A stretch of 64,000 nt of DNA from a plasmid. Each line of letters begins with the position of its first letter. The first letter of the stretch is position 1. This document shows, in pieces, positions 25,225 to 50,301 of the stretch. The translations under genes were made by a program, and so were the position numbers. The stretch lies in the sequence record NZ_CP010801.1; one strand, written 5' to 3'. The notes under the pieces are model-generated. The model did no database searches. It saw only the letters and a program-made list of their open reading frames with translations, and was not told the DNA's origin.

Positions 25225-25253
25225 GTCCATCAGACCATCAGGCCATCAGGCCA

Positions 25254-25868: not shown

Positions 25869-26118
25869 CATCAAAGTCTCCCGTTGTTTCGGAACTGCGG
25901 CGAAAGCAGCGTCGCGCCAGCTTGGCGCACCGTGCGCGGCAGTCATGGTATCGGATTTCGGTCCCAACGGTCAGAGAAGACCCGAAGGCCCCTGCGCCCT
26001 GTGCCGGTGGCGAGCCTGACAAGTCGGTCTGGGGCTCACCACTGGCATGCATCCTGCGTTTGTCAGCCGCTCCGACGCGCATTGACGCACGTCGGCACGA
26101 TAACAACGAGGGGACGAT

Positions 26119-27453: not shown

Positions 27454-27539
27454 GAGGAAGTAGCGGGTGGCACGGCAGGCTGGATTGCCGCCGCCTCGCG
27501 CCCTCCCCGTCGGGAAGGGCGGAGGCCAGCGGCAGCCGC

Positions 27540-28226
27540 TCAAGCGCGATCCTGGCCTCGGACCCAATCGGCCAGCGTTTCCAGCGACTCGACCTGGACA
27601 TCCGGCCGCGCACCCAGCTCGTCGTAGGTGTTGCCCACGCGATTGATCCACGCCACCTGGTAACCGAAGTGCTTGGCCCCTGATGCGTCCCAGGCGTTCG
27701 ACGAGACGAACAGCATGTTGTCGCGCGCCAGGCCCATGGTCTTTTCGGGCAGCGCATAGACCTTGCCGTGCGGCTTGAACACTTCGACGTTATCGACGCT
27801 GATCAGATGGGCGAAGCGATCCTGCAGCCCCGCGTGGTGCACGACCGAATGAATCGACCGTACCGAGCCGTTGGACAGGATGGCCAGCGGAAGATCGAGC
27901 GCCTGAAGCATCGACAGGGCCGGCGGAGTATCCGGGTAGGGATTCAGCTTCAGGTACGCCTCGCACAACGCCGCGCGGTCCGGCGCCTGCAGCTGCAGCC
28001 CGAGATGGTTGCAGGTATAGACCAGCGCGTCCTCGGTGGCAGCCTCGAACGACAGGTACTGGCCCATCAGGCTGCGCAGCCAGGTGTATTCCAGTTGCTT
28101 CTGGCGCCACAGCACGCTGATCTCCAGTCCGCGTCCCGGATACAGGTCGCTGCAGCGGCCGGCTACCGAATGCACGTCGAACAGCGTGCCGTAGAGATCG
28201 AACACTACACCTTTGATTGCTTTCAT
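27540..28226 (-). CDS. L-2-haloacid dehalogenase (HAD superfamily, type II)
   Basis: N-terminal DxYGT nucleophile motif (VVFDLYGTLFDV), SNG motif and an FKP...D C-terminal HAD signature. Confidence 0.75.
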   Translation of the reverse strand: MKAIKGVVFDLYGTLFDVHSVAGRCSDLYPGRGLEISVLWRQKQLEYTWLRSLMGQYLSFEAATEDALVYTCNHLGLQLQAPDRAALCEAYLKLNPYPDTPPALSMLQALDLPLAILSNGSVRSIHSVVHHAGLQDRFAHLISVDNVEVFKPHGKVYALPEKTMGLARDNMLFVSSNAWDASGAKHFGYQVAWINRVGNTYDELGARPDVQVESLETLADWVRGQDRA

Positions 28227-28332
28227 CGTAAATCCCCAGTAATGGAGCGGGCAATGTGCCCGCGGGTCAGTCTTGCCCGCGCCGACCGTGGACGGCGCCG
28301 GCATGTACATGGATCGGGTGGAACCAGCGGGA

Positions 28333-29889
28333 TCAGTCCGCCGGCACAACAGGAGCCGGCGGAGCATCCGGCCTGGCCCCGGTATGCGCCTGGAAGACGA
28401 AGGCGTCGAAGCGGGCCTCGTGCTCGGCGCTGCGCCGGCTCAGCATCGTGCCAAGCCATGCGCCGAGGAAGCCGATCGGCATGCTCAGGATCGTTGGATT
28501 CACGATCGGAAACAGCGCCTGGTCCTTCAGGAACGCCGGGCCGAGAAACGCCAGCGCGACCGACGAAACCAGGCCCGCGGTGACGCCACCGATCACACCG
28601 GCGGTATTGAAGCGGCGCCAGAACATCGACAGCAGGATGATGGGGAAATTGGCCGACGCCGCGATCGCGATGGCCAGGATCACCAGCACGCCCACATTGA
28701 TGCCCTGCGCCAGCAGTCCCAGCGCGACCGCCAGCACGCCCACGCCCAACGTGGCGATGCGCGCGACGCGGACCTGCTGCTCTTCGCTGACCGCGCCCCG
28801 GCGAATCACATTCACATACAGGTCGTGCGCGATGGCGCCCGACGACGCGAGCGTGAGTCCGGCCACCACGGCGAGAATGGCGGCGAAGGCCACGGCACAG
28901 ATACATGCCAGGAAGAACTGGCCGCCGAAGGTGCCGGGACCGCCGCCGAGATGCTGCGCCAGCAGCGGCAGTGCCAGGTTGCCGCCCTTGTCGGCCGCGC
29001 GGATGGCGTCCTGTCCCACGAGGGTGGCCGACGCGAAGCCGATCAGCGTGGTGACCAGGAAGAAGCTGCCGGCCAGGAACATCAGCCACAGCACCGACTT
29101 GCGCGCTGTCCGCGCATCCGGCACGGTGTAGAAGCGCGTCATGATGTGAGGCAGGCCGGCGACGCCGAACATGAACGACAGGAACAGCGATAGCGGGTCC
29201 AGCGGATGCTTGAAGTAGCCGCCCGGCAACAGCATCTGCGCGCCATACTGCTGCTCCACCGAAGCGAACAGCCGCAGCGGGTCGTATTGGACAGCAGCCA
29301 GCAGCATCGCCACCAGCACGGCAGCCGCCGCGAGCAGCAGAACGGCCTTGATGATCTGCACCCACGTGGTGGCGATCATGCCGCCGAACAGCACATACAC
29401 GATCATCCCGACGCCAACCATGACCACGGCGGACTCGTACGAGATGCCGAGCATCAGCTTGATCAGGGCGCCGGCCCCTGCCATCTGCGGCACCATGTAT
29501 GCCAGGTTGACCACGAAGGTCCCGATGACCGCCGCGAGCCGCGCATGCCGGCTGCGCATGCGTTCGGCGATCACGTCGCCATAGGTGAACCTGCCGGTAT
29601 TGCGCACCGGCTCGGCCACCACCATCAGTACGATCAGGAAGGCTGCCAGCGCCGCCACCGCGTAGAGCGAGCCGTCCATGCCGTACAGCGAGATCAGGCC
29701 CGAGAAGCCCAGGAAAGCCGCCGCACTCATCCAGTCCCCTGCCAGGGCGAAGCCGTTGGCGCGGGCCGTCAGTTTCCCGCCGGCGGCGTAGAACTCGCTG
29801 GTGGTATTGGTGTGGCGGGCGGCCCACCACGTCACCGCCAGCGTCAGCGCGAGAATGCCGAGGAAGATTCCGATGGTCAGGGCTTTCAT
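28333..29889 (-). CDS. actP: ActP-like sodium:solute symporter (SSS family), likely a haloacetate/monocarboxylate permease
   Basis: 518 aa, multi-TM; ATGA overlap with the upstream DUF485 gene, as in yjcH-actP operons. Confidence 0.75.
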   Translation of the reverse strand: MKALTIGIFLGILALTLAVTWWAARHTNTTSEFYAAGGKLTARANGFALAGDWMSAAAFLGFSGLISLYGMDGSLYAVAALAAFLIVLMVVAEPVRNTGRFTYGDVIAERMRSRHARLAAVIGTFVVNLAYMVPQMAGAGALIKLMLGISYESAVVMVGVGMIVYVLFGGMIATTWVQIIKAVLLLAAAAVLVAMLLAAVQYDPLRLFASVEQQYGAQMLLPGGYFKHPLDPLSLFLSFMFGVAGLPHIMTRFYTVPDARTARKSVLWLMFLAGSFFLVTTLIGFASATLVGQDAIRAADKGGNLALPLLAQHLGGGPGTFGGQFFLACICAVAFAAILAVVAGLTLASSGAIAHDLYVNVIRRGAVSEEQQVRVARIATLGVGVLAVALGLLAQGINVGVLVILAIAIAASANFPIILLSMFWRRFNTAGVIGGVTAGLVSSVALAFLGPAFLKDQALFPIVNPTILSMPIGFLGAWLGTMLSRRSAEHEARFDAFVFQAHTGARPDAPPAPVVPAD

Positions 29890-30278
29890 GACTGGCTCCT
29901 GGCGTGGGCCTCGGCTGCGGCGCGATCCGCGAGTTCCTCGAAGCGTCGGTTGGCGGTGTTCACATACACGGTGGCGACCAGCCAGCACAGGGCGTAGATC
30001 AGCAGGATCAGCACGTACCCCACGTTCAGCGGTCCAAGCACCTTCCAGCCCATCAGCTCCCGGCCGTAACCGGCGAGTAGGGTGACGGCAAGGATGAAGG
30101 CCAGACTGCCGCCAAGCAGCGGCACGACCAGGCGCCGCTTGGCGCCGATCAGTTCGCGGAAGCTGTGCGTGTATGCCGCACCGCGCCACGGCGGACCCGA
30201 CGCGATAGCCTCTGGGGTGCGAGTCGTTTGCGCGACGTGCGCGGCCGGACAGACCGCGTCCTCCGATAGTTCGATCAT
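29886..30278 (-). CDS. DUF485 (YjcH-like) small membrane protein
   Basis: Two TM segments; genetic coupling to actP. Confidence 0.6.
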   Translation of the reverse strand: MIELSEDAVCPAAHVAQTTRTPEAIASGPPWRGAAYTHSFRELIGAKRRLVVPLLGGSLAFILAVTLLAGYGRELMGWKVLGPLNVGYVLILLIYALCWLVATVYVNTANRRFEELADRAAAEAHARSQS

Positions 30279-30615
30279 GGTTGTCTCCTGGATTGCGCCC
30301 GTTCAGGCGGGCGTGATTTGTTGGCGCCGCACAGCCGGCAGACGCGGCGTCCTGGCGCCGACGTCCCTTGAGCAAGCGGCATGCCGACGTGCGAGCCACG
30401 GCGCCCCGGCGCTGCCAATGCCCACGCGCGATCGAATCGCGGCACGGCCGCACGCTGGGCGCGCATGCCGGCCCGGTAACGCGAACCGCTTTTGACGGCG
30501 CCTGATTCAGATATGAATCAGCGGCGGGCGGGCGTGGCGGCTTTCGAACCCGCAACGACGTGGTGTAAGCTCGCCGCACGGCCCGACGGACAAGTGGCCT
30601 GGGGAAAACAAGCCA

Positions 30616-32319
<1,704 letters not shown>

Positions 32320-32323
32320 TCCC

Positions 32324-32361
32324 GGGGTCGCCTCAGAAAACGGAAAATAAAGCACGCTAAG
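32324..32361 (+). repeat. 38-bp IR at the tnpA end (IRtnp) of the Tn501-like transposon
   Basis: GGGGTCGCCTCAGAAAACGGAAAATAAAGCACGCTAAG; one mismatch (C for T at position 8) versus the outer pair. Confidence 0.85.
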
Positions 32362-34848
32362 CCGGTTGCAGCGGTCGTAGCGGCCTGAACTTGCCCGCGC
32401 CGATCTTGGCGCTGCTGCGCCAGAGGTAATCGCCGGTGAGGTTGATGTGCTCCCAACCGAGCGGCGACAGGTACTGCAACAGCGCGTCATCAACGGCATG
32501 GCCGTTGCCACGCAGCGCGTGCGCAGCCCGTTCCAGATAGACCGTGTTCCACAACACGACGGCAGCCGTTACCAGATTGAGGCCGCTAGCCCGGTAGCGC
32601 TGCTGCTCGAAACTGCGGTCGCGGATTTCACCCAGGCGGTTGAAAAACACTGCCCTGGCCAGCGCATTGCGCGCCTCGCCCTTGTTCAGGCCGGCATGCA
32701 CGCGGCGGCGCAGTTCCACGCTTTGCAGCCAGTCCAGGATGAACAGCGTGCGCTCGATGCGGCCCAGCTCGCGGAGCGCCACGGCCAGGCCGTTCTGGCG
32801 TGGGTAGCTGCCGAGCTTTCGGAGCATCAGGGAGGCCGTCACCGTGCCCTGCTTGATCGAGGTGGCCAGCCGCAGGATTTCGTCCCAATGGGCGCGGACG
32901 TGCTTGATGTTGAGCGTGCCGCCGATCATGGGTTTCAGCGCGTCATAGGCGGCGTCGCCCTTCGGGATGTAGAGCTTGGTGTCGCCCAGGTCGCGGATGC
33001 GCGGCGCGAAGCGGAAGCCCAGGAGGTGCATCAGGGCGAAGACGTGATCGGTGAAGCCCGCCGTGTCGGTGTAATGCTCCTCGATCCGCAAGTCGGACTC
33101 GTGGTACAGCAGGCCGTCGAGCACGTAGGTCGAATCGCGCACGCCGACGTTCACGACCTTGGTGTGAAATGGCGCGTACTGGTCAGAAATGTGGGTGTAG
33201 AACGTCCGCCCTGGGCTGCTCCCGTATTTCGGGTTGATGTGGCCGGTGCTCTCGGCCTTGCTGCCGGTGCGGAAGTTCTGGCCGTCCGACGATGAGGTGG
33301 TGCCGTCGCCCCAGTGCTCGGCGAAGGGATGGCGGAACTGTGCGTTGACCAGATCGGCCAGCGCCGCCCCGTAGGTTTCGTCGCGGATGTGCCAGGCTTG
33401 CAGCCAAGCCAGCTTGGCGTAGGTCGTGCCGGGGCAAGACTCCGCCATCTTGGTCAGGCCCAGGTTGATCGCGTCGGCGAGGATCGTGGTCAGCAACAGG
33501 TTCTTGTCTTTGGCCGGGTCGCCCGATTTCAGATGCGCGAAATGCCGAGTGAAGCCCGTCCATTCGTCCACCTCCAGCAGCAGTTCGGTGATCTTGACGT
33601 GCGGCAGGATCATTGCCGTCTGGTCGATCAGCGCTTGGGCGGTGTCGGGTACCGCCGCGTCGAGCGGCGTGATCTTCAAGCCTGACTCGGTGATGATGGC
33701 GTCCGGCAGCTCGTTGGCCGTCGCCATACGGTTGACGGTGGCAAGCTGTGTTTCCAGCAGCGTCAGCCGGTCGTTCAGGTACCGGTTGCAGTCGGTGGCC
33801 ACGGCCAGCGGCAATTCGCTGGCCTGCTTGAGGCTGGCGAATTTCGCGGGCGGCACCAGGTAGTCCTCGAAGTCCTTGAACTGGCGCGACCCCTGCACCC
33901 AGATGTCGCCGGAACGCAACGCGTTCTTCATCTCCGACAGCGCGCACAGTTCGTAGTAGCGCCGGTCGATGCCGGTGTCGGTCATGACCAGCTTCTGCCA
34001 GCGCGGCTTGATGAACTCGGTCGGCGCGTCGGCGGGCACCTTGCGGGCGTTGTCGCTGTTCATGCCGCGCAGCACCTCGATGGCGTCGAGCACGTCCTTC
34101 GCGGCGGGAGCGGCCCGCAGCTTGAGCACGGCAAGGAATTCCGGCGCGTAGCGGCGCAGCGTGGCGTAGCTTTCGCCGATGCGGTGCAGGAAATCGAAGT
34201 CCTCGGGCTGCGCAAGCTTCTGCGCTTCGGTGACGCTCTCGGCGAAGGCATCCCAGGACATGACGGCCTCGATGGCGGCGAACGGATCGCGGCCCGCCTG
34301 CTTGGCCTCGATCAGCGCCTGGCCGATGCGGCCGAACAGCCGCACCTTGGCGTTGATCGCCTTGCCGGACGCCTGGAATTGCTGCTGATGCTTGTTCTTG
34401 GCGGCGTTGAACAGCTTGCCCAGGATGCGGTCGTGCAGGTCGATGATTTCGTCGGTGACGGTGGCCATGCCCTCGATGGCAAGCGCCACCAGGGTGGCAT
34501 AGCGTCGCTGCGCCTCGAACTTGGCCAGGTCGGCGGGCGTCATCTGGCCACCCTCACGGGCGATCTTGAGCAGGCGGTTCTGGTGCACCGACCGCTCGAT
34601 GCCAGAAGGCAGGTCGAGCGCCTGCCACGCTTTGAGGCGTTCGATGTGTTCCAGCATGTGCCGCGAATTCGGTTTGACGGGCGATTGGCGCAGCCAGGCC
34701 AGCCAGGTCGTTTTGCCGTTGTCCCGACGCTTGAGCAGATCGTCGAGGCGGCGGCGATGCGCGTCCGACAGCGGTTCGGCCAAGGCATCGTAGATGCGCC
34801 GGTTGGCGCGGGTGATTGCTTCGGCGCTCGCCCGCTCGACGGCGTTGA
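32357..34848 (-). pseudogene. tnpA: Tn21-subfamily transposase tnpA, C-terminal ~820 codons (interrupted)
   Basis: Ends ...[12 protein letters not shown] with the stop inside the IR; broken at the IS1071 insertion. Confidence 0.8.
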
Positions 34849-34958
34849 GGGGTCTCCTCGTTTTCAGTGCAATAAGTGACGGTACGAAAAGCTAGCACTG
34901 GCGCGGAGGTGGTGTTGGTAGATCGTTGATTTCATTGACTTTCCTGTTCACTTTCAAA
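34849..34958 (+). repeat. IS1071 left 110-bp IR
   Basis: Matches the inverted copy at 37943-38052. Confidence 0.7.
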
Positions 34959-34991
34959 TCTGCGATTCGTGGCGTCAAACCGTGGTCGGTT

Positions 34992-37919
34992 TCATCCATT
35001 GGTGCCAGTTATCGATGCATTTGGCCGCGAAGGCAGGATTTGGTCAGCATAGCGGTCAACCGGGAAGCGAAACACACCCCGCAAGTTGATGCTCTCCAGC
35101 CTGGTGGGCGCAATCTTCCCGATCAGTTCCGGTGGAATGACCTGGCGGCGGTTCGACCAGCGATCCAGGACCGCCTGCATCTGTGAGGTATTCCACGCCA
35201 TCACGATGTTGGCCATCAGGCTCAACGCATCGGCCACAGCCTGCATTTCATCGACACGTTTGGCCTGCGCCGGGCTGATCCGGCCGGTATAAATGGCGCG
35301 CTTGAGGGCGTTAACAGCCTCGCCCCGATTGAGCACCCGGCGCAACTCGTTCCTGAAAGCGTCCTTGACAAAGTAGTCAGCCAAAAACGCCGTACGCAGC
35401 AACCGCCCCAATTGCACGCCAGCCTCATAGATTGGATCGCCCTGGGCGGCAGAACCGAACCGCGCAAGAGCTGCCACCGCACTGGCATGTCCGCTCATGA
35501 CCGAGGCTGCCAGGTGCACCAGACTATCCCAATGCTTTTCGATCAAAGCGACGTCGACATTGGCTTCGCACACCGCAGCGATTTCTGCGGGCACTTTGGT
35601 GCCGCGTGGCACAAAGAGGTGGCGCTGTTTGAGTTCCTTCAACCGCGGGCAAAGATCAAAACCAAGCAAACGGGCATGTGACATGGCAAAGTCGGTGTAG
35701 CCATGGGTATCCACAGCAAGCTGGCTGGTCTCCAGCTTTTCTTGGCGGATGACACCTTCAATGGCCACGCCCGCCTGGCGCTCATTGAGCACAAAGGGCT
35801 GCGCATGGAAGATGCCCCACCGGTCTTTTACATGGGAGTAGATTCCAATGGAAGGTGTGTTGCGCCGAGGATCAAGCCGGGCTTGCCACACCCGTTTGGT
35901 GGTCTCCATGGTCATCATGTCAGAAGATGCCAAATCGGACCGCCCCCAGGTGGCGGCAATCGGGTGTCGCTGCATGAATTCCAGCACAGCCTGGCAGGCC
36001 TGGCTCAGACGCCGTTCGTCCCGCGCCCAGCGCATGGCCTGGCGAATGCTGGTGGCAGACAATTGCGGAATCATGCGCGCGCATTCGACCGCAGTCAGAC
36101 TGGTGCCGTGGGCCATGATGCCGGCATAGACCATCAGCAGCTCGTCGGTAGAGCGCGGCTCACGTCCGAGCATGATCCAGCTAAAGCGCACCTGGGCGTC
36201 AACGGCCAGAATCACTTCCGGCAATTGAACCTCACCGATGCGGTGATCCAAAGCCGCGCGCAGCTTGGTCACTTCTGGGTCTTCGTCCTCTGCGGGCAAT
36301 GGCGACAAATGGAGTTCATCATCCACGCGCAGTACGCCACTGCGGGCTGCAGCGGCCACCGCATCGACACCGGCAGTTACTCTGGCCAGCAAAGGCTTCA
36401 AGAAAGTGGCAGCCTTGCTGGGTAACGATAGACGGGCATAGTGTTTCTTGGACTCTGCCTGCCAACGCTCGTCCGTGAAGAACAAGCGCGCACGACCCCG
36501 AAAGCTCAGGCTGTGCTCAATCCAGACCGAGCCATTGCGCACCGCGCGGCGCAGGGCAAACAGGGTGGCCACCTCCAACGCCTGAAACGCCCGTTCCCGG
36601 TCTGGGCTGGAGATCGAAACCTGCCAGATCATTCCCAGACTTGGTGCCACCACTTCAACTGGCAGCTTTCTGGATCCTTTGAGATATAAAGCTTGCAGCT
36701 TGGCAAGGTACTCGATGGCAGGATGCTCGCCGGTGGCCTGCCAGGGCAGCTTTGCAATGGCGACGAGCAACGACCGCACGGGGCGAATTCCATCAATCAA
36801 TCCCTCGCGGACCAGGGAGGCCCTGCTCGGTGGTTTGCGTTTCTGGGTTTCGGTGATCAAGGCTTCAAGACGGGCACGCAACTCAGCATCTGGCACCGCA
36901 CCTTGCGCGCTCAAGGCAACAAGTTCGCCGAGCAGCGTTTTGTACATTGCGGCCCAATTGACGGTAGCGGGGACATCGGCGGCAGCCTGACGCCACAGAT
37001 CGGCGATCCGGCGCTGCACCATAAGGATCAACTGGTCTGTGGTGGTGAACAGGCAATACCGAAGAAAGCATGCGACCTCCACGGTGCGCGCTGGCTCTTT
37101 GATCTTGGCTCCGGCTGAGGGCGGCCTGGAGACAAGTCGGCGCGCGTAGCGGCGCAAGATGAGATCGGGGATGTCTGCCAGGTGCTTATGAACGTCCAGC
37201 GTGTAAAGCAGGTCGATGCGCTCCAGTACCTCGCTGATTTGGCGGGTTGAGTGTTTCGCCGGTGCAGCCCATAGCCAACTCTGCTGGGTTTGTCCATCTG
37301 GGCGCGGCTCTGAAACTGAGGCTCGCCAGCGATCAAGTGTTGCTGGATCAACGCTGGCGGCGATGGCGGTGCCTGTTTCAACTTCAAGCTGGGCAAGTGC
37401 CGCCGCAATCAGTGTCCGAATTGCCCGCTCGTGCACGATCACCAGCTTGTTCTTGTACAGCCATTGACGCGCCCGCACGAGTAGCTGATCGCGGTCGGCG
37501 CAGCGCGCCACTTCGTCGCGCAGTTCACGTACCAGTGAGCGGCGCTGGTGCTCGCTCATCCACTGGAATCCAAGGACCGTGCAGGCTACTTGTTGGTGAT
37601 CGAATAGCGTGCGCCCGCGTTCATACATGGCTCTCAGCGAGGCGACTTCTGGTGCTGCAATGCCAAGCTCGTTGCCAAGGTGGCGCCACAAGGCTACTGG
37701 AATTACCCGAAAGGCACCGAGCAAACGCCCACTCATGCGCAGGAAACCAATATGGAGCGCCAGACCAAGCTTGTGGGAATCACCTCGGCGTGCATTGATT
37801 GCGTCGCGCTCGGCACCATCGAAGGTGAAAAATGCCTTCATCTCGAAGTCGCTGATATCGCGGGGGAGCCCACGCATCCCCAAAAACGTTGTGTGCCAAC
37901 CCTGCATCGTGAACCTCAA
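34992..37919 (-). CDS. tnpA: IS1071 Tn3-family transposase
   Basis: 975-aa Tn3-family TnpA with no associated resolvase. Confidence 0.85.
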   Translation of the reverse strand: MRFTMQGWHTTFLGMRGLPRDISDFEMKAFFTFDGAERDAINARRGDSHKLGLALHIGFLRMSGRLLGAFRVIPVALWRHLGNELGIAAPEVASLRAMYERGRTLFDHQQVACTVLGFQWMSEHQRRSLVRELRDEVARCADRDQLLVRARQWLYKNKLVIVHERAIRTLIAAALAQLEVETGTAIAASVDPATLDRWRASVSEPRPDGQTQQSWLWAAPAKHSTRQISEVLERIDLLYTLDVHKHLADIPDLILRRYARRLVSRPPSAGAKIKEPARTVEVACFLRYCLFTTTDQLILMVQRRIADLWRQAAADVPATVNWAAMYKTLLGELVALSAQGAVPDAELRARLEALITETQKRKPPSRASLVREGLIDGIRPVRSLLVAIAKLPWQATGEHPAIEYLAKLQALYLKGSRKLPVEVVAPSLGMIWQVSISSPDRERAFQALEVATLFALRRAVRNGSVWIEHSLSFRGRARLFFTDERWQAESKKHYARLSLPSKAATFLKPLLARVTAGVDAVAAAARSGVLRVDDELHLSPLPAEDEDPEVTKLRAALDHRIGEVQLPEVILAVDAQVRFSWIMLGREPRSTDELLMVYAGIMAHGTSLTAVECARMIPQLSATSIRQAMRWARDERRLSQACQAVLEFMQRHPIAATWGRSDLASSDMMTMETTKRVWQARLDPRRNTPSIGIYSHVKDRWGIFHAQPFVLNERQAGVAIEGVIRQEKLETSQLAVDTHGYTDFAMSHARLLGFDLCPRLKELKQRHLFVPRGTKVPAEIAAVCEANVDVALIEKHWDSLVHLAASVMSGHASAVAALARFGSAAQGDPIYEAGVQLGRLLRTAFLADYFVKDAFRNELRRVLNRGEAVNALKRAIYTGRISPAQAKRVDEMQAVADALSLMANIVMAWNTSQMQAVLDRWSNRRQVIPPELIGKIAPTRLESINLRGVFRFPVDRYADQILPSRPNASITGTNG

Positions 37920-37942
37920 AAGTGGGAGGCCACCATACCCGT

Positions 37943-38052
37943 TTACAAAGCGAACAGGAAAGTCAATGAAATCAACGGTCTACCCAGACCACCCCCGCGC
38001 CAGTGCTAGCTTTGCGTACCGTCACTTATTGCACTGAAAACGAGGAGACCCC
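37943..38052 (-). repeat. IS1071 right 110-bp IR
   Basis: Inverted copy of 34849-34958. Confidence 0.7.
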
Positions 38053-38532
38053 GTTGAGGGCAGGCAGAATGACCGACTGCTGCCGCAGGTGCTCGATCAA
38101 GGTGCTGGCCAGCACGATGCCCTTGTCGGTCTGCAAGGCCATCTCGGTCAGCAACTGGACGGCCTGCCGGTAGTGGCCCATGGTAAAGGGCTGGAAGCCG
38201 AACACCGTTTGCAGTTCGACCAGGTGCTCGCGCCGGGTCTGCTCCCGCTGCCCGTATTCGTCCCAGCTTTCGACGCTGACCTTGAGCTGGTCGGCGACCA
38301 GTTTCAACAAGGGCGGAAACGGCGGCTCATCGACGCCCAGGATGACACCAGGAAAGCGCAGGTAACAGAGCTGCACGGCGAAGCCCAGCCGGTTGGCCGG
38401 GCCGCGCCGCTGCCGGATGATGGAGAGGTCGGTTTCGCTGAACGTGTAGTGACGGATCAACTCATCCTTGGTGTCCGGCAACGCCAGCAGGCTTTCGCGC
38501 TCGGCGGCGGACAGGATTGAACGACGTGGCAT
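38053..38532 (-). pseudogene. tnpA: Tn21-subfamily tnpA, N-terminal ~160 codons (MPRRSILSAAERESLLALPD...)
   Basis: Canonical Tn21/Tn501 TnpA N-terminus; joins the 32357-34848 part across IS1071. Confidence 0.8.
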
Positions 38533-38534
38533 AT

Positions 38535-39095
38535 TTACTGATCCGTTCTCAAGTATTGATACAGGGTTTCGCGACTGATTCCGAATTCACGAGCCAGCTT
38601 GGTCTTTTGCTCGCCAGCCTCGACACGTTGGCGCAGTTCGGCAATACGCTCAGACGACAGGGATTTCTTCCTGCCACGGTAGGCCCCGCGCTGCTTGGCG
38701 AGCGCGATGCCCTCGCGCTGCCGCTCGCGGATCAAGGCGCGTTCGAACTCGGCGAACGCGCCCATTACCGACAGCATCAGGTTCGCCATCGGCGAGTCCT
38801 CGCCGGTGAAGGTCAAATGCTCCTTAAGGAACTCGATGCGTACGCCGCGCTGGGTGAGGCCCTGCACCAGGCGGCGCAGGTCGTCGAGGTTGCGCGCCAG
38901 ACGATCCATGCTGTGCACCACGACCGTGTCGCCTTCGCGCACGAAGGCGAGCAGCCGTTCCAGTTCGGGCCGCCGTGTGTCCTTGCCCGACGCCTTGTCG
39001 GTGAACACTTTATCCACCTGGATCTGTTCGAGCTGCCGTTCTGGGTTCTGGTCGAAGCTGCTGACGCGGACGTAACCGATGCGCTGACCGTGCAA
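38535..39095 (-). CDS. tnpR: Tn21/Tn501-type resolvase
   Basis: GYVRVSSFDQNPERQ serine-recombinase motif; probable TTG start. Confidence 0.85.
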   Translation of the reverse strand: MHGQRIGYVRVSSFDQNPERQLEQIQVDKVFTDKASGKDTRRPELERLLAFVREGDTVVVHSMDRLARNLDDLRRLVQGLTQRGVRIEFLKEHLTFTGEDSPMANLMLSVMGAFAEFERALIRERQREGIALAKQRGAYRGRKKSLSSERIAELRQRVEAGEQKTKLAREFGISRETLYQYLRTDQ

Positions 39096-39225
39096 GGTAT
39101 CCTCCTGAGGGAAATGTGTCAGGAAGAAATCTATGACCCTTGACGGCGTATGTCAATCAATTCGGAAGGCAACTCTATTCTGACGATTTAGCGCCGGATG
39201 GTCTGACGCCAAGTTAGGGTATGCC
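39096..39225. promoter_or_regulatory. Probable res (resolution) site region between tnpR and urf2
   Basis: Position equivalent to Tn501 res; subsites not individually mapped. Confidence 0.5.
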
Positions 39226-40215
39226 TCAATCTGACGGTAGCGAGTCGCAGGCGTTCGGATCGGCATCGGTTTCGTTCCCTGTCTTGGCACGCGCTTCGAA
39301 GCGTTGATAACACTCCAACCCGCAGAAGTGCTCGACGTATTCCGCGCCTTCCGGGGTGAAGGCGGCATCGAGCGGGATTTCCTTGCAGCACACGCAGCAA
39401 CTGGTGGTGGTCGAGTCACTTGCATTCATGGTGGCACCCCTCCATTGACTGACGAAGACGGCGAATGCCGCCGCCGGCATTGGCTTCGCGAACAGGAAGC
39501 CTTGTCCTGTGTCGCAGTCCGCTTGTCGCAATAGATCAAGACTCGCCGATGTTTCCACGCCTTCAGCCACCACATCCATGCCCAGCCCGTGCGCAAGCTG
39601 AATCACGGTGTGCACGATGGTTTGGTCGCGGCGGTCGTTGGCGAGCCCGGCGACAAACGATTGGTCGATCTTGAGCGTGCTGATTGGGCAGCACTTCAGA
39701 TGTTGCAGACAGGAATACCCCGTCCCGAAGTCATCGGCGGCGAAGCGCACACCGATCTGCCGCGAGGCGTCCAGGGCGGGGAAGATCGCCGGATCACCAA
39801 ACGCGACCGATTCGGTCAGCTCGATTTCGAGATACTCGGCGGGCAACTCGGCATCAGCCAGCACGCCCTTTACCCACCCGTCGAAGTCCGGTCCCACTTG
39901 GCTCGCCGAAACATTGACGGCCAGCCGGAACGGTCGCCATGCCAGCATTCGCCAGTCACGCATCTGGCGGCAGGCTTCGCCCAGCACCCAAGCGCCGATT
40001 TCAGGCATCAGGCCGGACGATTCGACCACGGGCAGGAACTGGCCCGGTGGCAATAGTCCAAGCGTCGGATGACGCCAGCGCAACAGGGCTTCCGCGCCGA
40101 CAATCCCACCACTGCGCAGATCGACGACGGGCTGGTAGTGCAGTTCAAGCTGCCCGCGCTCGACCGCTTGGGCCAGTTCCGGCGTCGTCCATCCATCCGG
40201 CCGGAAAGCGCTCAT
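39226..40215 (-). CDS. urf2: EAL-domain protein (Tn501 urf2 equivalent)
   Basis: EAL phosphodiesterase motifs ([13 protein letters not shown]); ATGA overlap with merE. Confidence 0.75.
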
Positions 40216-40448
40216 TCTCTTTCCCTGAATGCCCGCAACGCCCGCGACAGGGACAGAAGGAACAGGCCGGTCAAACCGAGCGCCGCGATGACCCAATGCT
40301 CGCCGAGGAAAGCACCGGCGGTTGTGCCGGCCAGCACGACAGCGAGGATGGGCAGGTGGCAGGGGCAAGTCAGCACAGCCAGTCCGCCCCACAGGTAGCC
40401 GGTGATCGGTTTGTGCGTCTCGGACGGCAAGCGCTCGGGGTTGTTCAT
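40212..40448 (-). CDS. merE: MerE mercury transporter
   Basis: 78 aa, [18 protein letters not shown]... with a CPC motif. Confidence 0.8.
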
Positions 40449-40810
40449 GGCAGACTCTCCGCGTGCTGTGCCGGCTCGGTCGGCAGGGTGGCCAACTGCA
40501 CTTCCAGATCGGCCAACGCTTCGCGCCGACGCTCGACGAACTGACGCAGCAGGGCAAGCTGCGCGGCCGCTTCGTCGCCGTCCGCCGCATCCAGCGCCCG
40601 GCACAGCCGCGCCAGCGCGTCGAGGCCGATGCCCGCCTCGAAGGCCGCCCGCACGAAGCACAGCCGTTGCAAGGCGGCGTCATCGAACAAGCCGTAGCCG
40701 CCTGGTGTGCACGCCACCGGGCGCAGCAATCCGCGCAGCAGGTAGTCGCGCACGATATGCACGCTCACCCCGGCATCAAGAGCCAGCCGGGACACCGTGT
40801 AGGCGTTCAT
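40445..40810 (-). CDS. merD: MerD co-regulator
   Basis: 121 aa, [29 protein letters not shown] (MerR-like HTH). Confidence 0.8.
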
Positions 40811-40827
40811 TGAACACCTCCTTTTTC

Positions 40828-42525
<1,698 letters not shown>

Positions 42526-42584
42526 TTATCGTTTGTGGCGCCAGACAATGACGTCCGTTGTGCTGCGGTGCCGTTTTCAGTGAC

Positions 42585-42860
42585 TCACTGCTTGACGCTG
42601 GACGGATAGCCCGCGTCTGCGGTTGCCTTGGTCAGCTTCTGCACGCTGGTCTTGGCATCGTCGAAGGTGACGACCGCTTGGCGTGTCTCGAAAGTCACGT
42701 CAACTTTGCTGACGCCTTCGACCTTGGAAATCGCCTTCTTGACAGTGATCGGGCAGGCGGAGCAGGTCATGCCCGGTACGGACAGCGTGACGGTCTGGGT
42801 GGCGGCCCAGACGGGGGCAACAACGGCGGCGAGGGCGAGGGAGGCAAACAGTTTCTTCAT
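42585..42860 (-). CDS. merP: Periplasmic mercury-binding protein
   Basis: 91 aa, signal peptide plus GMTCSAC. Confidence 0.9.
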   Translation of the reverse strand: MKKLFASLALAAVVAPVWAATQTVTLSVPGMTCSACPITVKKAISKVEGVSKVDVTFETRQAVVTFDDAKTSVQKLTKATADAGYPSSVKQ

Positions 42861-42872
42861 GGTGAACTCCGA

Positions 42873-43223
42873 TCAGTAGAAAAATGGCATGACGTAGGGA
42901 AATCCGAGCGCGACCAGAACCAGCGCGGCCACGATCCAGAAAATGAGCTTGTAAGTAGCTCGCACTTGGGGAATCGCGCAGACCTCACCCGGTTTGCAGG
43001 CCGCTGCCTGCCGGTAGATGCGCCGCCAGGCGAAGAACAACGCCACCAGCGCCACGCCGATAAAGATGGGGCGATAGGGTTCCAACACCGCCAAGTTGCC
43101 GATCCAAGCGCCGCTGAACCCCAAGGCGATCAGAACCAACGGCCCGAGGCAGCAAGCCGAGGCGAGGATGGCGGCAAGCCCTCCAGTGAAGAGCGCGCCG
43201 CGCCCGGTTTTTGGTTCAGACAT
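42873..43223 (-). CDS. merT: Mercuric transport protein
   Basis: 116 aa, MSEP..GRGALF..., CC pair in TM1. Confidence 0.85.
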
Positions 43224-43249
43224 GCGCTTGTCCTTTCGAATTGAAATTG

Positions 43250-43292
43250 GATAGCGTAACCTTACTTCCGTACTCATGTACGGAGTCAAGCG
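43250..43292. promoter_or_regulatory. mer operator/promoter: divergent merR / merTPAD promoter with the MerR-binding dyad
   Basis: TTGACTCCGTACATGAGTACGGAAGTAAGGT on the merT strand: -35 TTGACT, 19-bp spacer with dyad TCCGTAC-N4-GTACGGA, -10 TAAGGT. Confidence 0.8.
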
Positions 43293-43294
43293 AT

Positions 43295-43729
43295 ATGGAA
43301 AACAATTTGGAGAACCTGACCATTGGCGTTTTCGCCAAGGCGGCCGGGGTCAATGTGGAGACCATCCGTTTCTATCAGCGCAAGGGCTTGTTGCTGGAGC
43401 CTGACAAGCCCTATGGCAGCATCCGCCGCTATGGCGAGGCGGATGTAACGCGGGTGCGCTTCGTGAAATCAGCCCAGCGGCTGGGCTTCAGCCTGGATGA
43501 GATCGCCGAGCTGCTGCGGCTGGAGGATGGCACCCATTGCGAGGAAGCCAGCAGTCTGGCCGAGCACAAGCTCAAGGACGTGCGCGAGAAAATGGCTGAC
43601 CTGGCGCGCATGGAGGCCGTGCTGTCTGAGTTGGTGTGCGCCTGCCATGCGCGAAGGGGGAACGTTTCCTGCCCGCTGATCGCGTCACTACAGGGTGGAG
43701 CAAGCTTGGCAGGTTCGGCTATGCCTTAG
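43295..43729 (+). CDS. merR: MerR Hg(II)-responsive regulator
   Basis: 144 aa, [33 protein letters not shown]; C-terminal Cys residues; stop inside the IR. Confidence 0.9.
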
Positions 43730-43762
43730 CGTGCTTTATTTTCCGTTTTCTGAGACGACCCC
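43725..43762 (-). repeat. 38-bp IR (mer end), right outer end of the composite element
   Basis: Reverse complement is identical to the 3174-3211 copy. Confidence 0.85.
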
Positions 43763-43921
43763 TTTAAGGTTGAGGCAGCCGGAGTGGCCAAGATCGGCGA
43801 AGGTTGGGTGGGGCCGAATGCGCACAGCTTGGCGATCGATCCCGCCACGCATGAGATTTATCTTCCCCTGCCGGACATCGACCATCATCCGGTGATGCGT
43901 GTCTTGAAGCCCGACACCTGA
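43763..43921 (+). pseudogene. YncE-like beta-propeller protein, 3' part (52 codons) downstream of the insertion
   Basis: Reads FKVEAAGVAKIGEGWVGPNAHSLAIDPATHEIYLPLPDIDHHPVMRVLKPDT* in the same frame as the 2224 ORF once the TTTAA duplication is accounted for. Confidence 0.7.
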
Positions 43922-45040: not shown

Positions 45041-46339
45041 ATGCCGGATATTGACCGCTATCTCGAAGCCGCGACCCGCGATAACACGCGGCGCAGCTAC
45101 CAATCGGCCATTCGGCATTTCGAGGTCGAGTGGGGAGGCTTCCTGCCGGCGAGCGCCGACAGCATTGCGCGCTACCTGGCCGACCACGCGCAGACGCTTG
45201 CCATCAACACGCTGCGTCAGCGCCTTGCTGCGATCGGGCAGTGGCACGTTTCACAGGGTTTCCCCGACCCGACCCGGGCGCCACACGTGCGGAAGGTGCT
45301 CAAGGGCATCCAGGCACTGCACCCTGCCCAGGAGCGGCGCGCCAAACCGCTGCAACTCATGCAACTGGAGCGATTGGTCGCGTGGCTCGATGCCCAGATC
45401 GCCACAGCTACGGTGGCAAATGCGGGCCGTCAACTCCAGGTCCACACCCGTAACAAGGCGCTGGTGCTGATCGGCTTCTGGCGGGGTTTCCGATCGGACG
45501 AACTGAGCCGGCTGCAGATCGAGCACATCACCGTCGAACCTGGGCGCGGCATGACCATCTTCCTGCCGCGCACCAAGACAGACCACGTTGGTACGACGCA
45601 CCGGGCACCGGCCTTGTCGCGTCTGTGCCCGGTGGCGGCCTACGAGGCATGGCTGGCCGCATCCGGCTTGACGCGGGGTCCGGTTTTTCGGCGCATCGAT
45701 CGCTGGGGGAAGATCGCCGACGCCGGGCTGCAGGCCGCCAGCGTCGTGCCCTTGTTGCGAACGTTGTTCCAGGAAGCCGGCCTGCCCGAGGCGGCTCGCT
45801 ATAGCAGTCACTCGCTGCGGCGCGGCTTTGCCTCCTGGGCCAACGCGAACCAGTGGGATCTCAAGATGCTGATGGAGTACGTCGGCTGGAAGGATGTCCG
45901 CTCCGCCATGCGCTACATTGACGCGGCAGACCCATTCGCACAACACCGTATCGAATCGGCGCTGGCGCCGCCTGCAGCACCTATGCCACCGCGGGCCATC
46001 CCACCCGCATCGACGGAGCAGCGCCCCATGGCTGTGCCCAAGCCCGTGGCTCAGACGCGCTTGATCGTGCGCCTCTATATCGAGCGCAACAGCAAGTTCG
46101 TGCGCGGCAAGTCCAAGGCGCGTCGCTGGATTGAGCAGTGCTGCTTGGCCCAGTACCAAATGCGGCCGCTGGAGGGCCCCCGCACCGAATACGAGATCGT
46201 GATGCCGTTTGCCGCTGGCCCCGAACTGGAACAGGCCATCGCGGAACTGATTGCGGAGATGCACGACCAGGCGGACCTGTGCAACTGCTTTGTCGAGGTG
46301 ACGCTGCACGATCCGGTGACCGATACCCACTGGAGCTAA
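45041..46339 (+). CDS. Tyrosine recombinase (XerD-like core) with a ~120-aa C-terminal extension of unknown function
   Basis: Catalytic R...HSLRRGFA...Y region; convergent with and 26 nt from the tnpA 3' end. Confidence 0.65.
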   Translation: MPDIDRYLEAATRDNTRRSYQSAIRHFEVEWGGFLPASADSIARYLADHAQTLAINTLRQRLAAIGQWHVSQGFPDPTRAPHVRKVLKGIQALHPAQERRAKPLQLMQLERLVAWLDAQIATATVANAGRQLQVHTRNKALVLIGFWRGFRSDELSRLQIEHITVEPGRGMTIFLPRTKTDHVGTTHRAPALSRLCPVAAYEAWLAASGLTRGPVFRRIDRWGKIADAGLQAASVVPLLRTLFQEAGLPEAARYSSHSLRRGFASWANANQWDLKMLMEYVGWKDVRSAMRYIDAADPFAQHRIESALAPPAAPMPPRAIPPASTEQRPMAVPKPVAQTRLIVRLYIERNSKFVRGKSKARRWIEQCCLAQYQMRPLEGPRTEYEIVMPFAAGPELEQAIAELIAEMHDQADLCNCFVEVTLHDPVTDTHWS

Positions 46340-46364
46340 TCAGCCTGGGACTTGCGAATTGCCA

Positions 46365-49340
46365 TTATCCCGCACGCCGGCGAGGCGCTGCCTCCAGCAG
46401 GGTGTCCTGGTACTGGTGGATCGGGAAACTCAGGATGCCCCGGAAATTCACATGCGCGAAGTGGGCCGGGCCCATGCGGCGCAGCCAGTCGTCTTCGACG
46501 CGCAGCCCCTTGCGGCGCCACGCATCGACCGTGGCCTGCATACGCTGCGTGTTCCAGGCAATCACCAGGTTCGTCAGTAGGGTCAGCGATCCGGAAATCG
46601 CGATCATTTCGTCCTGACGGCGCCCGCGGTCATGTGCCACCTTGCTGGAATAGATGGCCCGCTGAAGCTGGTGGACCGACTCACCCCGATTGAGCAGGGT
46701 GCGCAACTCGCGGCGAAACTCCGCATTGCTGAAGAAGTCGCACAGGAACAGCGTGCGCAGCAGTTTGCCCAGGTGATCCGCAGCTTTGTGGATGGGGTCG
46801 CCTTGGGCGGCGCTGCCGAAGCGCTGCAGCGCGACAATCGCACTCACGCGTCCCGAATAGATTGACGCCACCAAGCGCAGCAACCCATCCCAGCCCTCAC
46901 GAATAGTCTTGAGCGAGATCTCGTGAGACGCTGCGGCCGACAAGCCGTCGCTCACTAGCAGCCCACGCGGCACGTACAGCTTGCGCTCGGACAGGTTGCG
47001 AAGCCATGGGCACAGGTCAAAGCCGAGCAATTTGGCCACCGCCATCCCCACGTTCGTATAGCCGTGCGTATCGACCGCGAGCCGGAGGAGCCCGCCGCCG
47101 GTACGGGTCTCGTTGTGGCGCAGCACGCCTTCGATCGCTACGCCGGTCTGCCGCTCGTTGAGCACCATGGGCTGGTTGTACGCGATACCGTGCTGGTCCA
47201 GCACGTGGGTGTAGATGCCAACCGCATGGGTGCGCCGGCGCGGATCGGCGCGTGCGTAAAACAAGTGGGGTGAGGTATCCAGGCTCATCGAGTCGCTCGA
47301 CGCCTGCTGACCGGTTCCCCACAGCTCGGTGATCGCGTGCGTGCGTTGGAACTCCACCACGCGCTCATTCGCGCGGCGCAGCCGCCCCGGCATCTCCAAC
47401 GCGCGCATCGCAGTAGAGACGTGCGCCGTGTCCAATTGCGGGATCATGGCCGCCACACCCTTGGCATCCAGTTCGGTACCGTGGGCGATCAATGCAGCGT
47501 AGAGCGAGATCAACTCGTGCGCATCGCGCGCCTTGCGTGCGAGCAGCACCTCGCTGAAATTCGTACGGGCATCCATCTCCAGGATCATGTCGGCAAACTG
47601 CGCGCTGCCAATGTCCTTGAAGAGCAGATCACGTGTACGCGTGGGTACACCGTCGGTTGGGGCCGCGTCCAGCGGCGACAGATGCAACACACCGTTCGCA
47701 TCCATCGTGAAGTGACCCGCCTCGCGGGCCTCGTCCAGCGCCGCAAGACCTGCCTTCAGATGATCCGTGAGGCGGTTGAGGTAGGTGTCAGCCTGGTTCG
47801 GCAAACCGATCGAGGACAGATACCGGTCCCGCTCCGATTCCCACTGTGTCGGCGGGATCAGCAACTGATCGCGCTCCCGGAACGACAGGCTGTGGCTGAT
47901 CCAGACCGTGCCGCGGCGCAGAGCTTTGCGCAAGCCCGTGATCGCGCAGGCTTCCATCGCGCGCAGCGCGCGCTTACGATCTTCGCCATCGACCAAATCA
48001 CGCCAGCTTGCGCTCACCGGCACATTGCAATCGGGCGGCAGTTCCGTCGCACCATGTTCGTACAGCTTGCCGATGACCTCAAGCTGCCGCATGACCGGCT
48101 CGTTGCCGTTTCCGGCCAGCTCCAATTCCCGCAGGGGCGCCAGCAGGTTGCGGATGCGGTGGTGATCTTCTGTGAGTGTTTCGCGCACGCTCGCGGCATG
48201 GCTTGCGGTGGGCTTGGCAGACAGGCCTTCGAGCAGCTGGCCGATGTCTGCCAGGCGCGCTTCGGCCGAGCGACTGTCGTCGTCAACCAGCCCCTTGATC
48301 TCGACCAGTTGCTGCCGGTATTGGAGCGCCGAGCGCGCTTGCTTCGTAGTGGTCTTGTTGTAGGCCTGCCTGATGAGATCGGAGACGCGGCGTCCGGCCT
48401 GGTAGGCCATCGCGTCCGTCAACTCCAGCAGGGTCACACGCAGGAAGAACAACAGTTCGATGGTGCGCGTGGACGTTTTCAGTTCGCGGATCTTGGCAGG
48501 ACGGCGGGCCTGGACGCGCTGGCCATAGGCGCGTTGTTTCTCGATCGGGATGCCATCCAACGCCCAGGTATGCGCGCCCAGTCCTTTGAGAAAGCGGATT
48601 TTGTCCAGCGTCTCGCTCATGGTGGACGGGCTGTGGCGTGCGGGCGGCGTCTTGAGCCATTCCAGCACGGTCGAACTGGAGGCCGCATGCTGGGCAAATA
48701 CAGCGGCCTCAGCCCGCGCAACCTGCTCCATGGGCACGACCGCTTCAATCGTGGCCAGCAGGTCACGCTCGATGCTCGCCCAAATGGAACGCGCCAAGTC
48801 CTGCAACGCGCGCGTGGAAGGGATCAGAATCCGCCGTTCGTACAGCCAGTAGTTGGCGTGCTGGACCAGCTCGTCCAGCGACAGCGATTCGGTGGCGTCC
48901 TGCCGCATCCAGGCTTCGAGGCCCGTCCACTGGTCTTCATCCAGCCGCCTCAGGCCGAGGTAATCGCAAGCCCAGACCTGATGCTCGTAAAGCGTCTTGT
49001 AGCGTTGGTAGATTGTGCGTAGTGACGCAATGGTCGGGGTTGGCAAGCCGAGCTTGTCGCCGACGTAGCGCAGCAACTGCCGGGGTAGGGTATTGAGCTG
49101 GTCGAGGGTGCGGCCGCTAGCACGCAGGAAAACCAGCTGAATGGCGGCGCCGGCTCGCCCGTCCCGTCGGAACTTGTTGTTAATCGCGGCGATATCGCTG
49201 CCGGTCAAGGCAAAGTAATGATCGATATCGAACTCGGATAAGCGGGCCGGTAAGCAGTCCTTTCCCACATAGCGAAATTGCAAGTCCGACATCTTCCGCC
49301 CCCGTTCAGGTGACGCGATCCGAAATCGCGGGGCGGACAT
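46365..49340 (-). CDS. tnpA: Tn3-family transposase
   Basis: 991 aa (possible start at MSDLQF, 49292); starts ~70 nt inside the IR at 49409-49457. Confidence 0.8.
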   Translation of the reverse strand: MSAPRFRIASPERGRKMSDLQFRYVGKDCLPARLSEFDIDHYFALTGSDIAAINNKFRRDGRAGAAIQLVFLRASGRTLDQLNTLPRQLLRYVGDKLGLPTPTIASLRTIYQRYKTLYEHQVWACDYLGLRRLDEDQWTGLEAWMRQDATESLSLDELVQHANYWLYERRILIPSTRALQDLARSIWASIERDLLATIEAVVPMEQVARAEAAVFAQHAASSSTVLEWLKTPPARHSPSTMSETLDKIRFLKGLGAHTWALDGIPIEKQRAYGQRVQARRPAKIRELKTSTRTIELLFFLRVTLLELTDAMAYQAGRRVSDLIRQAYNKTTTKQARSALQYRQQLVEIKGLVDDDSRSAEARLADIGQLLEGLSAKPTASHAASVRETLTEDHHRIRNLLAPLRELELAGNGNEPVMRQLEVIGKLYEHGATELPPDCNVPVSASWRDLVDGEDRKRALRAMEACAITGLRKALRRGTVWISHSLSFRERDQLLIPPTQWESERDRYLSSIGLPNQADTYLNRLTDHLKAGLAALDEAREAGHFTMDANGVLHLSPLDAAPTDGVPTRTRDLLFKDIGSAQFADMILEMDARTNFSEVLLARKARDAHELISLYAALIAHGTELDAKGVAAMIPQLDTAHVSTAMRALEMPGRLRRANERVVEFQRTHAITELWGTGQQASSDSMSLDTSPHLFYARADPRRRTHAVGIYTHVLDQHGIAYNQPMVLNERQTGVAIEGVLRHNETRTGGGLLRLAVDTHGYTNVGMAVAKLLGFDLCPWLRNLSERKLYVPRGLLVSDGLSAAASHEISLKTIREGWDGLLRLVASIYSGRVSAIVALQRFGSAAQGDPIHKAADHLGKLLRTLFLCDFFSNAEFRRELRTLLNRGESVHQLQRAIYSSKVAHDRGRRQDEMIAISGSLTLLTNLVIAWNTQRMQATVDAWRRKGLRVEDDWLRRMGPAHFAHVNFRGILSFPIHQYQDTLLEAAPRRRAG

Positions 49341-49408
49341 CGTACTCCCGAAGACGCCGGAAGGCAGCAGACAATAGTCGGAATCACCTGGAAAGCCTTA
49401 TGAAAAAA

Positions 49409-49457
49409 GGCTTTGCCGGGAAACCGCCAGATTTTGCACGAGAAGTACGATTACCCC
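49409..49457 (-). repeat. Candidate Tn3-family terminal IR (GGGGTAATCGTACTTCTCGTGCAAAATCTGGCGGTTTCCCGGCAAAGCC read inward)
   Basis: GGGG terminus at the expected distance upstream of tnpA; no partner found in the window. Confidence 0.5.
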
Positions 49458-49506
49458 TACGAGCGATACCGAACTGGCATACGGTGACGAAGCAGACCTC
49501 GCAACA

Positions 49507-49731
49507 ATGCGCGCAGAGCATGAAGCGAGATTCACTGCTCAGGCCGCGCTGACCAAGCGGCTTGGCCAGGTCGAATCAGCACTGGTCCGCTTGCGCCGCG
49601 GGGAATATGGGATCTGTGAACTCACAGGGGAAGAGATCCCCATCGAACGCCTGCGTGCAAATCCGCTGGCGACGCGCACGATCGAGGCACAAGAGCGCGC
49701 CGAGCGCCGCAGCCGACTGTTCGCAGTCTGA
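49507..49731 (+). CDS. TraR/DksA-family small protein (single-Cys variant)
   Basis: 74 aa, C-terminal region resembles TraR/DksA (GICELTGEEIP...RTIEAQERAER). Confidence 0.55.
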   Translation: MRAEHEARFTAQAALTKRLGQVESALVRLRRGEYGICELTGEEIPIERLRANPLATRTIEAQERAERRSRLFAV

Positions 49732-49739
49732 GAACGATC

Positions 49740-50156: not shown

Positions 50157-50301
50157 GTCGCCCGCAGAAACAGGTACGCAACGCGTGATTGGATAAGCAA
50201 TTACTAGATAACTATGTTGCTACATGACCAATGCGTGCAACTTAACCAAAATTCGTCCTACAATGGGCGCCAAGATCAACCAACTTCTTCCTGAGACAAC
50301 C

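Follow-up and report, generated by a model that had tools for sequence, protein, structure and literature searches.

The stretch of DNA analyzed here, 64,000 nucleotides of a plasmid (sequence record NZ_CP010801.1; hereafter the window), holds at 32324-43762 a mercury resistance (mer) transposon whose transposase gene, tnpA, is split by a copy of the insertion sequence IS1071 (Table 1). The inverted repeats (IRs) of 38 bp at the ends of the transposon, GGGGTCGCC... and GGGGTCGTC..., agree at 37 of 38 positions (97% complementary). Between them lie merR, the genes merTPADE and orf2 (urf2), and then, on a common strand, res, tnpR and tnpA, which is the arrangement of the Tn21 subgroup. An earlier reading made from the letters and their open reading frames (ORFs) without database searches (the sequence-only reading) had proposed the order merR-merOP-merTPADE-urf2-res-tnpR-tnpA with proteins of the mer family, and both Pfam and the match of MerA to a solved structure agree with it; the mer genes were also identified as such by AMRFinder. 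The ORF list contains no merC, with no ORF between merP and merA. Read directly, the spacer between merR and merT is TTGACT-CCGTACATGAGTACGGA-AGTAAGGT, which we take to be the Tn501 mer operator/promoter, with its -35 element, dyad and -10 element assigned from what is established for Tn501 and Tn21. The tnpR stop stands 2 bp ahead of the tnpA ATG. By its position and sequence, the 130-bp spacer between urf2 and tnpR is a putative res, which in the Tn21 subgroup is located upstream of tnpR (PMC7157771).

Table 1. Window coordinates of the mer transposon, its IS1071 insert, the ends of the 40.6-kb unit discussed in the text and the other Tn3-family transposases (aa, amino acids).
Feature	Position	Strand	Remarks
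TTTAA, left copy of the target duplication of the 40.6-kb unit	3169-3173	.	right copy at 43763-43767
Third 38-bp IR, left end of the 40.6-kb unit	3174-3211	+	perfect inverted copy of the merR-end IR; abuts the 3' end of the serine recombinase gene
Left-arm serine recombinase gene	3210-3764	-	stop codon inside the 38-bp IR; product 39% identical to TnpR of the mer transposon
Tn3-family transposase, 999 aa	15444-18443		one of three transposases 22-27% identical to the disrupted TnpA
38-bp terminal IR, tnpA end	32324-32361	+	GGGGTCGCCTCAG...; 1 nt off the other two IR copies; tnpA stop inside
tnpA, 3' part	32357-34848	-	codons 161-988 (828 codons), stop and the duplicated GTTGA; DDE_Tnp_Tn3 at residues 580-966
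GTTGA, left copy of the IS1071 target duplication	34844-34848	.	5 bp
IS1071, complete	34849-38052	-	3204 bp; IRs at 34849-34958 and 37943-38052
IS1071 tnpA	34992-37907	-	strand shared with the interrupted tnpA; 971 aa from ATG; second of the three transposases 22-27% identical to the disrupted TnpA
GTTGA, right copy of the IS1071 target duplication	38053-38057	.	5 bp
tnpA, 5' part	38053-38532	-	codons 1-160; most of DUF4158
tnpR	38535-39095	-	186-aa serine resolvase, TTG start; resolvase and HTH_7 (Pfam)
res region (putative)	39096-39225	-	130-bp urf2-tnpR spacer; repeated TGTCAG/CTGACA-like half-sites
urf2/orf2	39226-40215	-	329 aa; EAL and DUF3330 (Pfam)
merE	40212-40448	-	78 aa; MerE (Pfam)
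merD	40445-40810	-	121 aa; MerR-type HTH (Pfam)
merA	40828-42513	-	561 aa; residues 96-561 identical to PDB 1ZK7/1ZX9 (solved mercuric reductase)
merP	42585-42860	-	91 aa; HMA (Pfam)
merT	42873-43223	-	116 aa; MerT (Pfam)
merOP, divergent operator/promoter	43224-43294	.	TTGACT, dyad TCCGTACATGAGTACGGA, TAAGGT
merR	43295-43729	+	144 aa; residues 1-134 identical to PDB 5CRL; MerR (Pfam)
38-bp terminal IR, merR end	43725-43762	-	also right end of the 40.6-kb unit
Tn3-family transposase, 991 aa	46365-49340		third of the three transposases 22-27% identical to the disrupted TnpA

IS1071 is a class II, Tn3-family insertion sequence that was first found flanking Tn5271 and that characteristically transposes by way of cointegrates which it does not resolve itself. 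The 3204-bp insert at 34849-38052 had been assigned to it from its properties, and the database confirms the assignment. In a megablast of the insert against the plasmid collection PLSDB (72,556 records), 203 records matched, 198 at no less than 99% identity and 136 covering at least 80% of the query; the top matches were 100% identical across all 3204 bp, and these identical copies are annotated as "Tn3-like element IS1071 family transposase". Because many database copies agree with the insert at every position over this length, chance is excluded and the insert is IS1071 by direct sequence identity. A repeat search returned terminal arms of 106 nt without gaps (34849-34954 and 37947-38052; 94%), and at the full 110 nt, the IR length that had been proposed, 102 of 110 positions match; a 110-bp right IR (IRR) of IS1071 is cited in PMC4739549. 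The sole substantial ORF of the insert (2916 of 3204 bp) encodes a Tn3-family transposase with DUF4158 and DDE_Tnp_Tn3 domains (Pfam), and ORF and Pfam analysis of the 3204 bp found neither a resolvase, as had been expected, nor cargo. The family of the transposase was thus called correctly, but its reported length of 975 aa is that of a mechanical ORF opened at an upstream TTG: the first ATG gives 971 aa, and public records annotate a 2916-bp coding sequence. The 5-bp target duplication made by IS1071 is likewise present, as GTTGA at both ends of the insert. In sequence, IRs of ~110 bp, single two-domain transposase, lack of a resolvase and 5-bp duplication, the element itself therefore shows no difference from IS1071, and the insertion site alone is particular to the present lineage. 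Many hosts of identical copies are Comamonadaceae (Variovorax, Comamonas, Acidovorax, Delftia and Hydrogenophaga), so that the association with this family drawn by the sequence-only reading is real, but it is not exclusive, as identical copies also occur in Pseudomonas, Burkholderia, Cupriavidus, Citrobacter and Klebsiella.

The two parts of tnpA lie exactly at the coordinates first proposed for them. When the insert and one of the two flanking GTTGA copies were removed in silico, a continuous tnpA ORF of 988 aa was obtained, with no stop and no frameshift, within a mer element of 8230 bp. Neither of the two outcomes named in advance as refuting the sequence-only reading, a discontinuous spliced tnpA and an insert devoid of long terminal IRs, was observed. 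The gene is interrupted after codon 160, so that the last residues of DUF4158 (6-169) are cut off and the DDE domain lies a long way downstream (Pfam). As now encoded, the upstream ORF (38026-38532) runs 8 codons into the IS1071 IR and then stops, giving 168 aa, and the 3' fragment lacks its own start in frame with a promoter. With the N-terminal DUF4158 region and the DDE catalytic domain now on separate fragments, the transposon should be unable to make a full-length transposase of its own, as had been anticipated.

The kind of mer transposon that was interrupted has to be specified more closely. Gene order and merOP sequence are those of Tn501 (Pseudomonas aeruginosa pVS1), MerR and the core of MerA match solved structures without a difference (5CRL and 1ZK7, presumably Tn501 proteins), and "Tn501-like", the term also used in the sequence-only reading, is the name given to the element in the IncP-1β literature; all of this would suit a host element that is Tn501 itself (the pVS1 archetype, Z00027). 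Length and transposition module point elsewhere. Tn501 (Z00027) measures 8355 bp (PMC11135338) as opposed to the 8230 bp of the spliced element, which is precisely the length of TnAO22 (EU696790), a Tn5051-like transposon (PMC2663772). TnAO22 has 38-bp IRs with a 1-bp difference, a TTG-start TnpR of 186 aa, a TnpA of 988 aa and a tnpA ATG 2 bp past the tnpR stop, and its res-tnpR and tnpA are 99% identical to those of Tn5051; compared with Tn501, its mer module is 99.8% identical, its res-tnpR and tnpA only 73% and 70%, and it differs by 45 bp upstream of tnpR (PMC2663772). All of the listed features of TnAO22 (IRs, TnpR start and length, spacing, TnpA length and total length), together with the order merRTPADE-orf2-res-tnpR-tnpA, recur in the spliced element. 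Its divergence from Tn4378 of pMOL28 (identities of 91.5% in tnpA, 81.2% in res-tnpR and 99.9% in mer) also fits the published comparison of TnAO22 with Tn4378 (92.3, 81.3 and 99.8, respectively; PMC2663772). Furthermore, the P. aeruginosa plasmid p12939-PER carries an intact copy that departs from the spliced element at 2 of 8230 positions, shows GTTGA once where IS1071 inserted and has a 5-bp duplication of its own, CACTA. Given the 8230-bp length, the shared features, the Tn4378 identity profile and the near-identical intact copy, the mer element very probably belongs to the TnAO22/Tn5051 type of the Tn21 subgroup, in which a Tn501-type merR-merOP-merTPADE-urf2 module is combined with a Tn21-like res-tnpR-tnpA module, and it is very unlikely to be Tn501 proper. 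"Tn501-like" accordingly suits gene order and mer module but not the transposition module, which includes the disrupted tnpA. From TnAO22 and Tn5051 the present element differs in that its tnpA is interrupted by IS1071 and in that it has no target duplication of its own.

The components of this locus are all described elements, and both IS1071 in this tnpA and extra Tn21-type IRs bounding larger units are already known from the literature. IS1071 has been reported within tnpA of the "Tn501-like" mer transposon on pB10, R906, pJP4, the pAKD series and rhizosphere plasmids, and the IncP-1β plasmids compared here (pB10, R906, pJP4, the pAKD series, pYKBU009 and pTK9) carry the same transposon at 99.9% identity, with the same insertion sequence in the same gene; pTK9 has an additional Tn501-type IR beyond its metabolic island. 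The present mer transposon differs from these in that it does not lie in an IncP-1 backbone. The insertion point differs as well: in pAKD29 and pYKBU009, IS1071 sits ~270 bp from the tnpA-end IR, at the equivalent of window position ~32590, and the GTTGA site is unoccupied. Because the IncP-1β copies lie there and leave GTTGA empty, the insertion of IS1071 at GTTGA is, judging by its position, an event independent of the IncP-1β insertions.

The distribution of the junction is narrow. CP146092.1, a replicon of 1.98 Mb in Ralstonia sp. RRA.1, was the single one of the 72,556 plasmid records to cover a 140-bp junction query in full. The exact 40-nt tnpA/IS1071 junction had one match among 185,579 species-representative genomes, in contig NZ_JAWHTP010000030.1 of Chromohalobacter sp. 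HP20-39, where a right-end IR variant of IS1071 abuts the 3' part of tnpA. We rejected this contig as a sign that the junction has spread, as it is short (957 bp), has ~2x coverage and carries the wrong IR variant at the 3' part of tnpA; it is probably a contaminant or chimera, or else the insertion sequence may have been inverted by recombination between its IRs. The same contig, with its odd version of the junction, and the fact that many genomes hold multiple copies of IS1071 could be taken to mean that the window itself contains an assembly error in which a repeat was collapsed or wrongly joined into tnpA. Such an error is extremely improbable, however, in view of the precise 5-bp duplication at both junctions, the restoration on excision of a frame that agrees with the intact copy to within 2 nt, and the 100% identity of the junction in a complete assembly, CP146092.1, which is possibly not independent of the window.

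The mer transposon is itself part of something larger. The 38-bp IR is present exactly three times in the window, at 3174 (+), at 32324 (+, 1 mismatch) and at 43725-43762 (-), and the outermost two copies (3174 and 43762) are identical at 38 of 38 positions. The sequences flanking the mer transposon are unequal (ATCCC and TTTAA), so it has no 5-bp duplication of its own, and TTTAA is found on both sides of 3174-43762. The duplication belongs to the larger unit, and its absence around the IRs of the mer transposon reflects the history of the transposon and not its identity. Deletion of 3174-43767 in silico converted a truncated 328-aa ORF at 2224 into a 367-aa ORF, the product of which aligned with intact YncE-family genes without a break at the junction (74% identity to pMOL28). 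Because TTTAA flanks the composite, the inner element lacks a duplication and excision restores the ORF, the sequence indicates that the 40.6-kb unit at 3174-43762 is an insertion made whole into a YncE-family gene, for which the IR at the merR end and that at 3174 were used. By its sequence context, the IR at 3174 belongs to another Tn21-subgroup element. These results agree with the earlier proposal that the mer transposon supplies an IR to a composite of ~40 kb. TnHad1 and TnHad2 of Delftia acidovorans pUO1 resemble this unit in concept only, as large class II structures with haloacetate dehalogenase genes on a plasmid that also carries IS1071. Sota et al. are said to have found in 2002 that the TnHad elements end in Tn21-type IRs.

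Because GTTGA is pristine, the IS1071 copy is identical to database copies, the mer element is nearly identical to intact copies and the junction is of restricted distribution, the composite most likely moved with a then-intact tnpA, and IS1071 came later. Alternatively, the composite may have entered the YncE-family gene after IS1071 had inactivated tnpA, if another replicon provided a Tn21-subgroup transposase in trans. This would be helped by the fact that the IRs actually used (3174 and 43762) are perfect copies of each other and by the circulation of compatible Tn21-subgroup transposases in these hosts, to judge from the ~93% ISPa38-type tnpA that the same element carries in pRp12D0 of Ralstonia pickettii MCR; a partial tnpA of ~92% identity is also present in pYS1, an IncP-1 plasmid of Burkholderia cepacia. 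However, it requires a helper, and the window has no other Tn21-subgroup tnpA; the intact GTTGA, the identity of IS1071 to database copies and the 2 differences in 8230 positions from the intact copy fit a recent arrival of IS1071, and only one plasmid record has the exact junction. We thus regard prior inactivation of tnpA as possible but rather unlikely, and prefer the order in which the composite moved first. Plasmid pRp12D0 (33737-41970) has the same junction between the merR-end IR and TTTAA together with an uninterrupted mer transposon, and was considered as the ancestor that preceded IS1071. Its identity is ~100% from tnpR on, with a crossover at the tnpR/tnpA boundary, and its tnpA is the ~93% allele throughout, annotated as ISPa38 family; its left flank is different, and the composite's left half is found inverted, ~85 kb from there. 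With this tnpA allele and left flank it is a recombinant, and we rejected it as the ancestor.

Taken as a whole, the locus is very probably an 8230-bp TnAO22/Tn5051-type mer transposon with tnpA::IS1071 at a duplicated GTTGA, forming the right arm of a 40.6-kb unit. On this reading, a complete IS1071 transposed into tnpA after codon 160, duplicating GTTGA and parting the DUF4158 region from the DDE domain, so that no full-length transposase would be produced; the 40.6-kb unit, bounded by two matching 38-bp IRs, entered the YncE-family gene as one piece, duplicating TTTAA, most likely before IS1071 arrived. IS1071 leaves the mer operon, urf2, res, tnpR and the two 38-bp IRs intact, and the element is predicted still to confer mercury resistance and to resolve cointegrates. 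The mer transposon would thus be non-autonomous, transposing only when a compatible Tn21-subgroup TnpA is provided in trans. No substitute Tn21-subgroup transposase is encoded in the window, where the other Tn3-family transposases are 22-27% identical to the disrupted TnpA; on account of this low identity (at most 27%), their membership in other subgroups and their different IRs, we rejected them as likely helpers.

Several points weigh against this reading. The empty target site is absent from PLSDB: an 800-bp query excised in silico found two half-sites only, in Ralstonia plasmids, and the case for insertion of the composite consists of the duplication and the restored ORF. The subtype call draws on published lengths, features and identity values for TnAO22, Tn5051 (Y17719) and Tn501. 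Furthermore, among related copies the one uninterrupted example that shares this right junction, that of pRp12D0, has a different tnpA allele and therefore does not fix the order of events. Loss of the transposase and retention of mercury resistance are predictions from nucleotide sequence only.

The 168-aa ORF left by the insertion (TnpA residues 1-160 plus 8 residues read from the IR) probably keeps its native expression signals because it remains where it was, on the strand of tnpR and directly downstream of that gene. One could imagine its product as a dominant-negative or immunity-like factor that blocks helper transposases and locks the 40.6-kb island; were the fragment stable and able to bind the three 38-bp IRs, the mercury/haloacid island would be fixed in place. 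We consider such a role improbable.

For annotation, the proper label of the region is a mer transposon of the TnAO22/Tn5051 type that carries tnpA::IS1071 and is nested, as the right end, in a 40.6-kb composite of the Tn21 subgroup; two separate "Tn3 family transposase" pseudogenes would not be an appropriate label. Beyond correct annotation the importance of the locus is little: it is one further independent landing of IS1071 in a tnpA already hit repeatedly on IncP-1β plasmids, and another example of class II transposon ends put to renewed use in moving a large cargo that mixes metal resistance with catabolic functions. With its unique sequence, the junction GGCGTTGA|GGGGTCTCC could mark the lineage of this Ralstonia-associated island.

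The left arm of the composite (3210-6476) consists of the serine recombinase gene followed by three hypothetical genes, a cupin gene and a HEPN(DUF86)/MNT toxin-antitoxin pair, a module that is common to Pseudomonas, Alicycliphilus and Burkholderia plasmids and resembles the layout of TnSod9 (PMC7157771). Further inward, an 8.2-kb Tn4651-like transposon (10407-18597) is nested in a LysR-family gene, with 54-bp IRs (GGGGTCATGCC...) and the duplication AACCC; it encodes the 999-aa TnpA, tnpC, a tyrosine recombinase and a RelE/ParE toxin-antitoxin pair, and copies of it are also found on other Ralstonia replicons. Next to the mer transposon lies a haloacid dehalogenase cluster (23453-32323) comprising an integrase, LysE, a ClC channel, a type II haloacid dehalogenase, an acetate symporter, DUF485 and a sigma-54 regulator. 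The cluster is 99.9% identical to one annotated on pYS1. The regulator stop (32317-32319) is 4 bp from the IR of the mer transposon, and pYS1 has the same junction.

To the right of the composite, a 432-aa tyrosine integrase stands beside the 991-aa Tn3-family transposase at 45041-49457, the latter being 37.6% identical to the IS1071 TnpA. Similarity to replicons of Ralstonia RRA.1 and MCR breaks off precisely at 49457, suggesting that a mobile element ends or that recombination occurred there. Identity to CP146092.1 is limited to 10407-49457, and 3100-10500 matches a different RRA.1 plasmid. Positions 1-49457 are near-identical, piecewise, to Ralstonia replicons, and 49458-64000 had no megablast match in the 72,556 plasmid records, so the window was rejected as a piece of the RRA.1 chromid CP146092.1 and represents an arrangement or replicon different from any in PLSDB. 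This last stretch includes several ORFs, such as one of 828 aa at 53554-56040. Finally, a 50-nt direct repeat (90%) links 13948-13997 with 24213-24262, within the recombinase and integrase ORFs at 13757-14950 and 23503-25224, and is probably a conserved coding motif.

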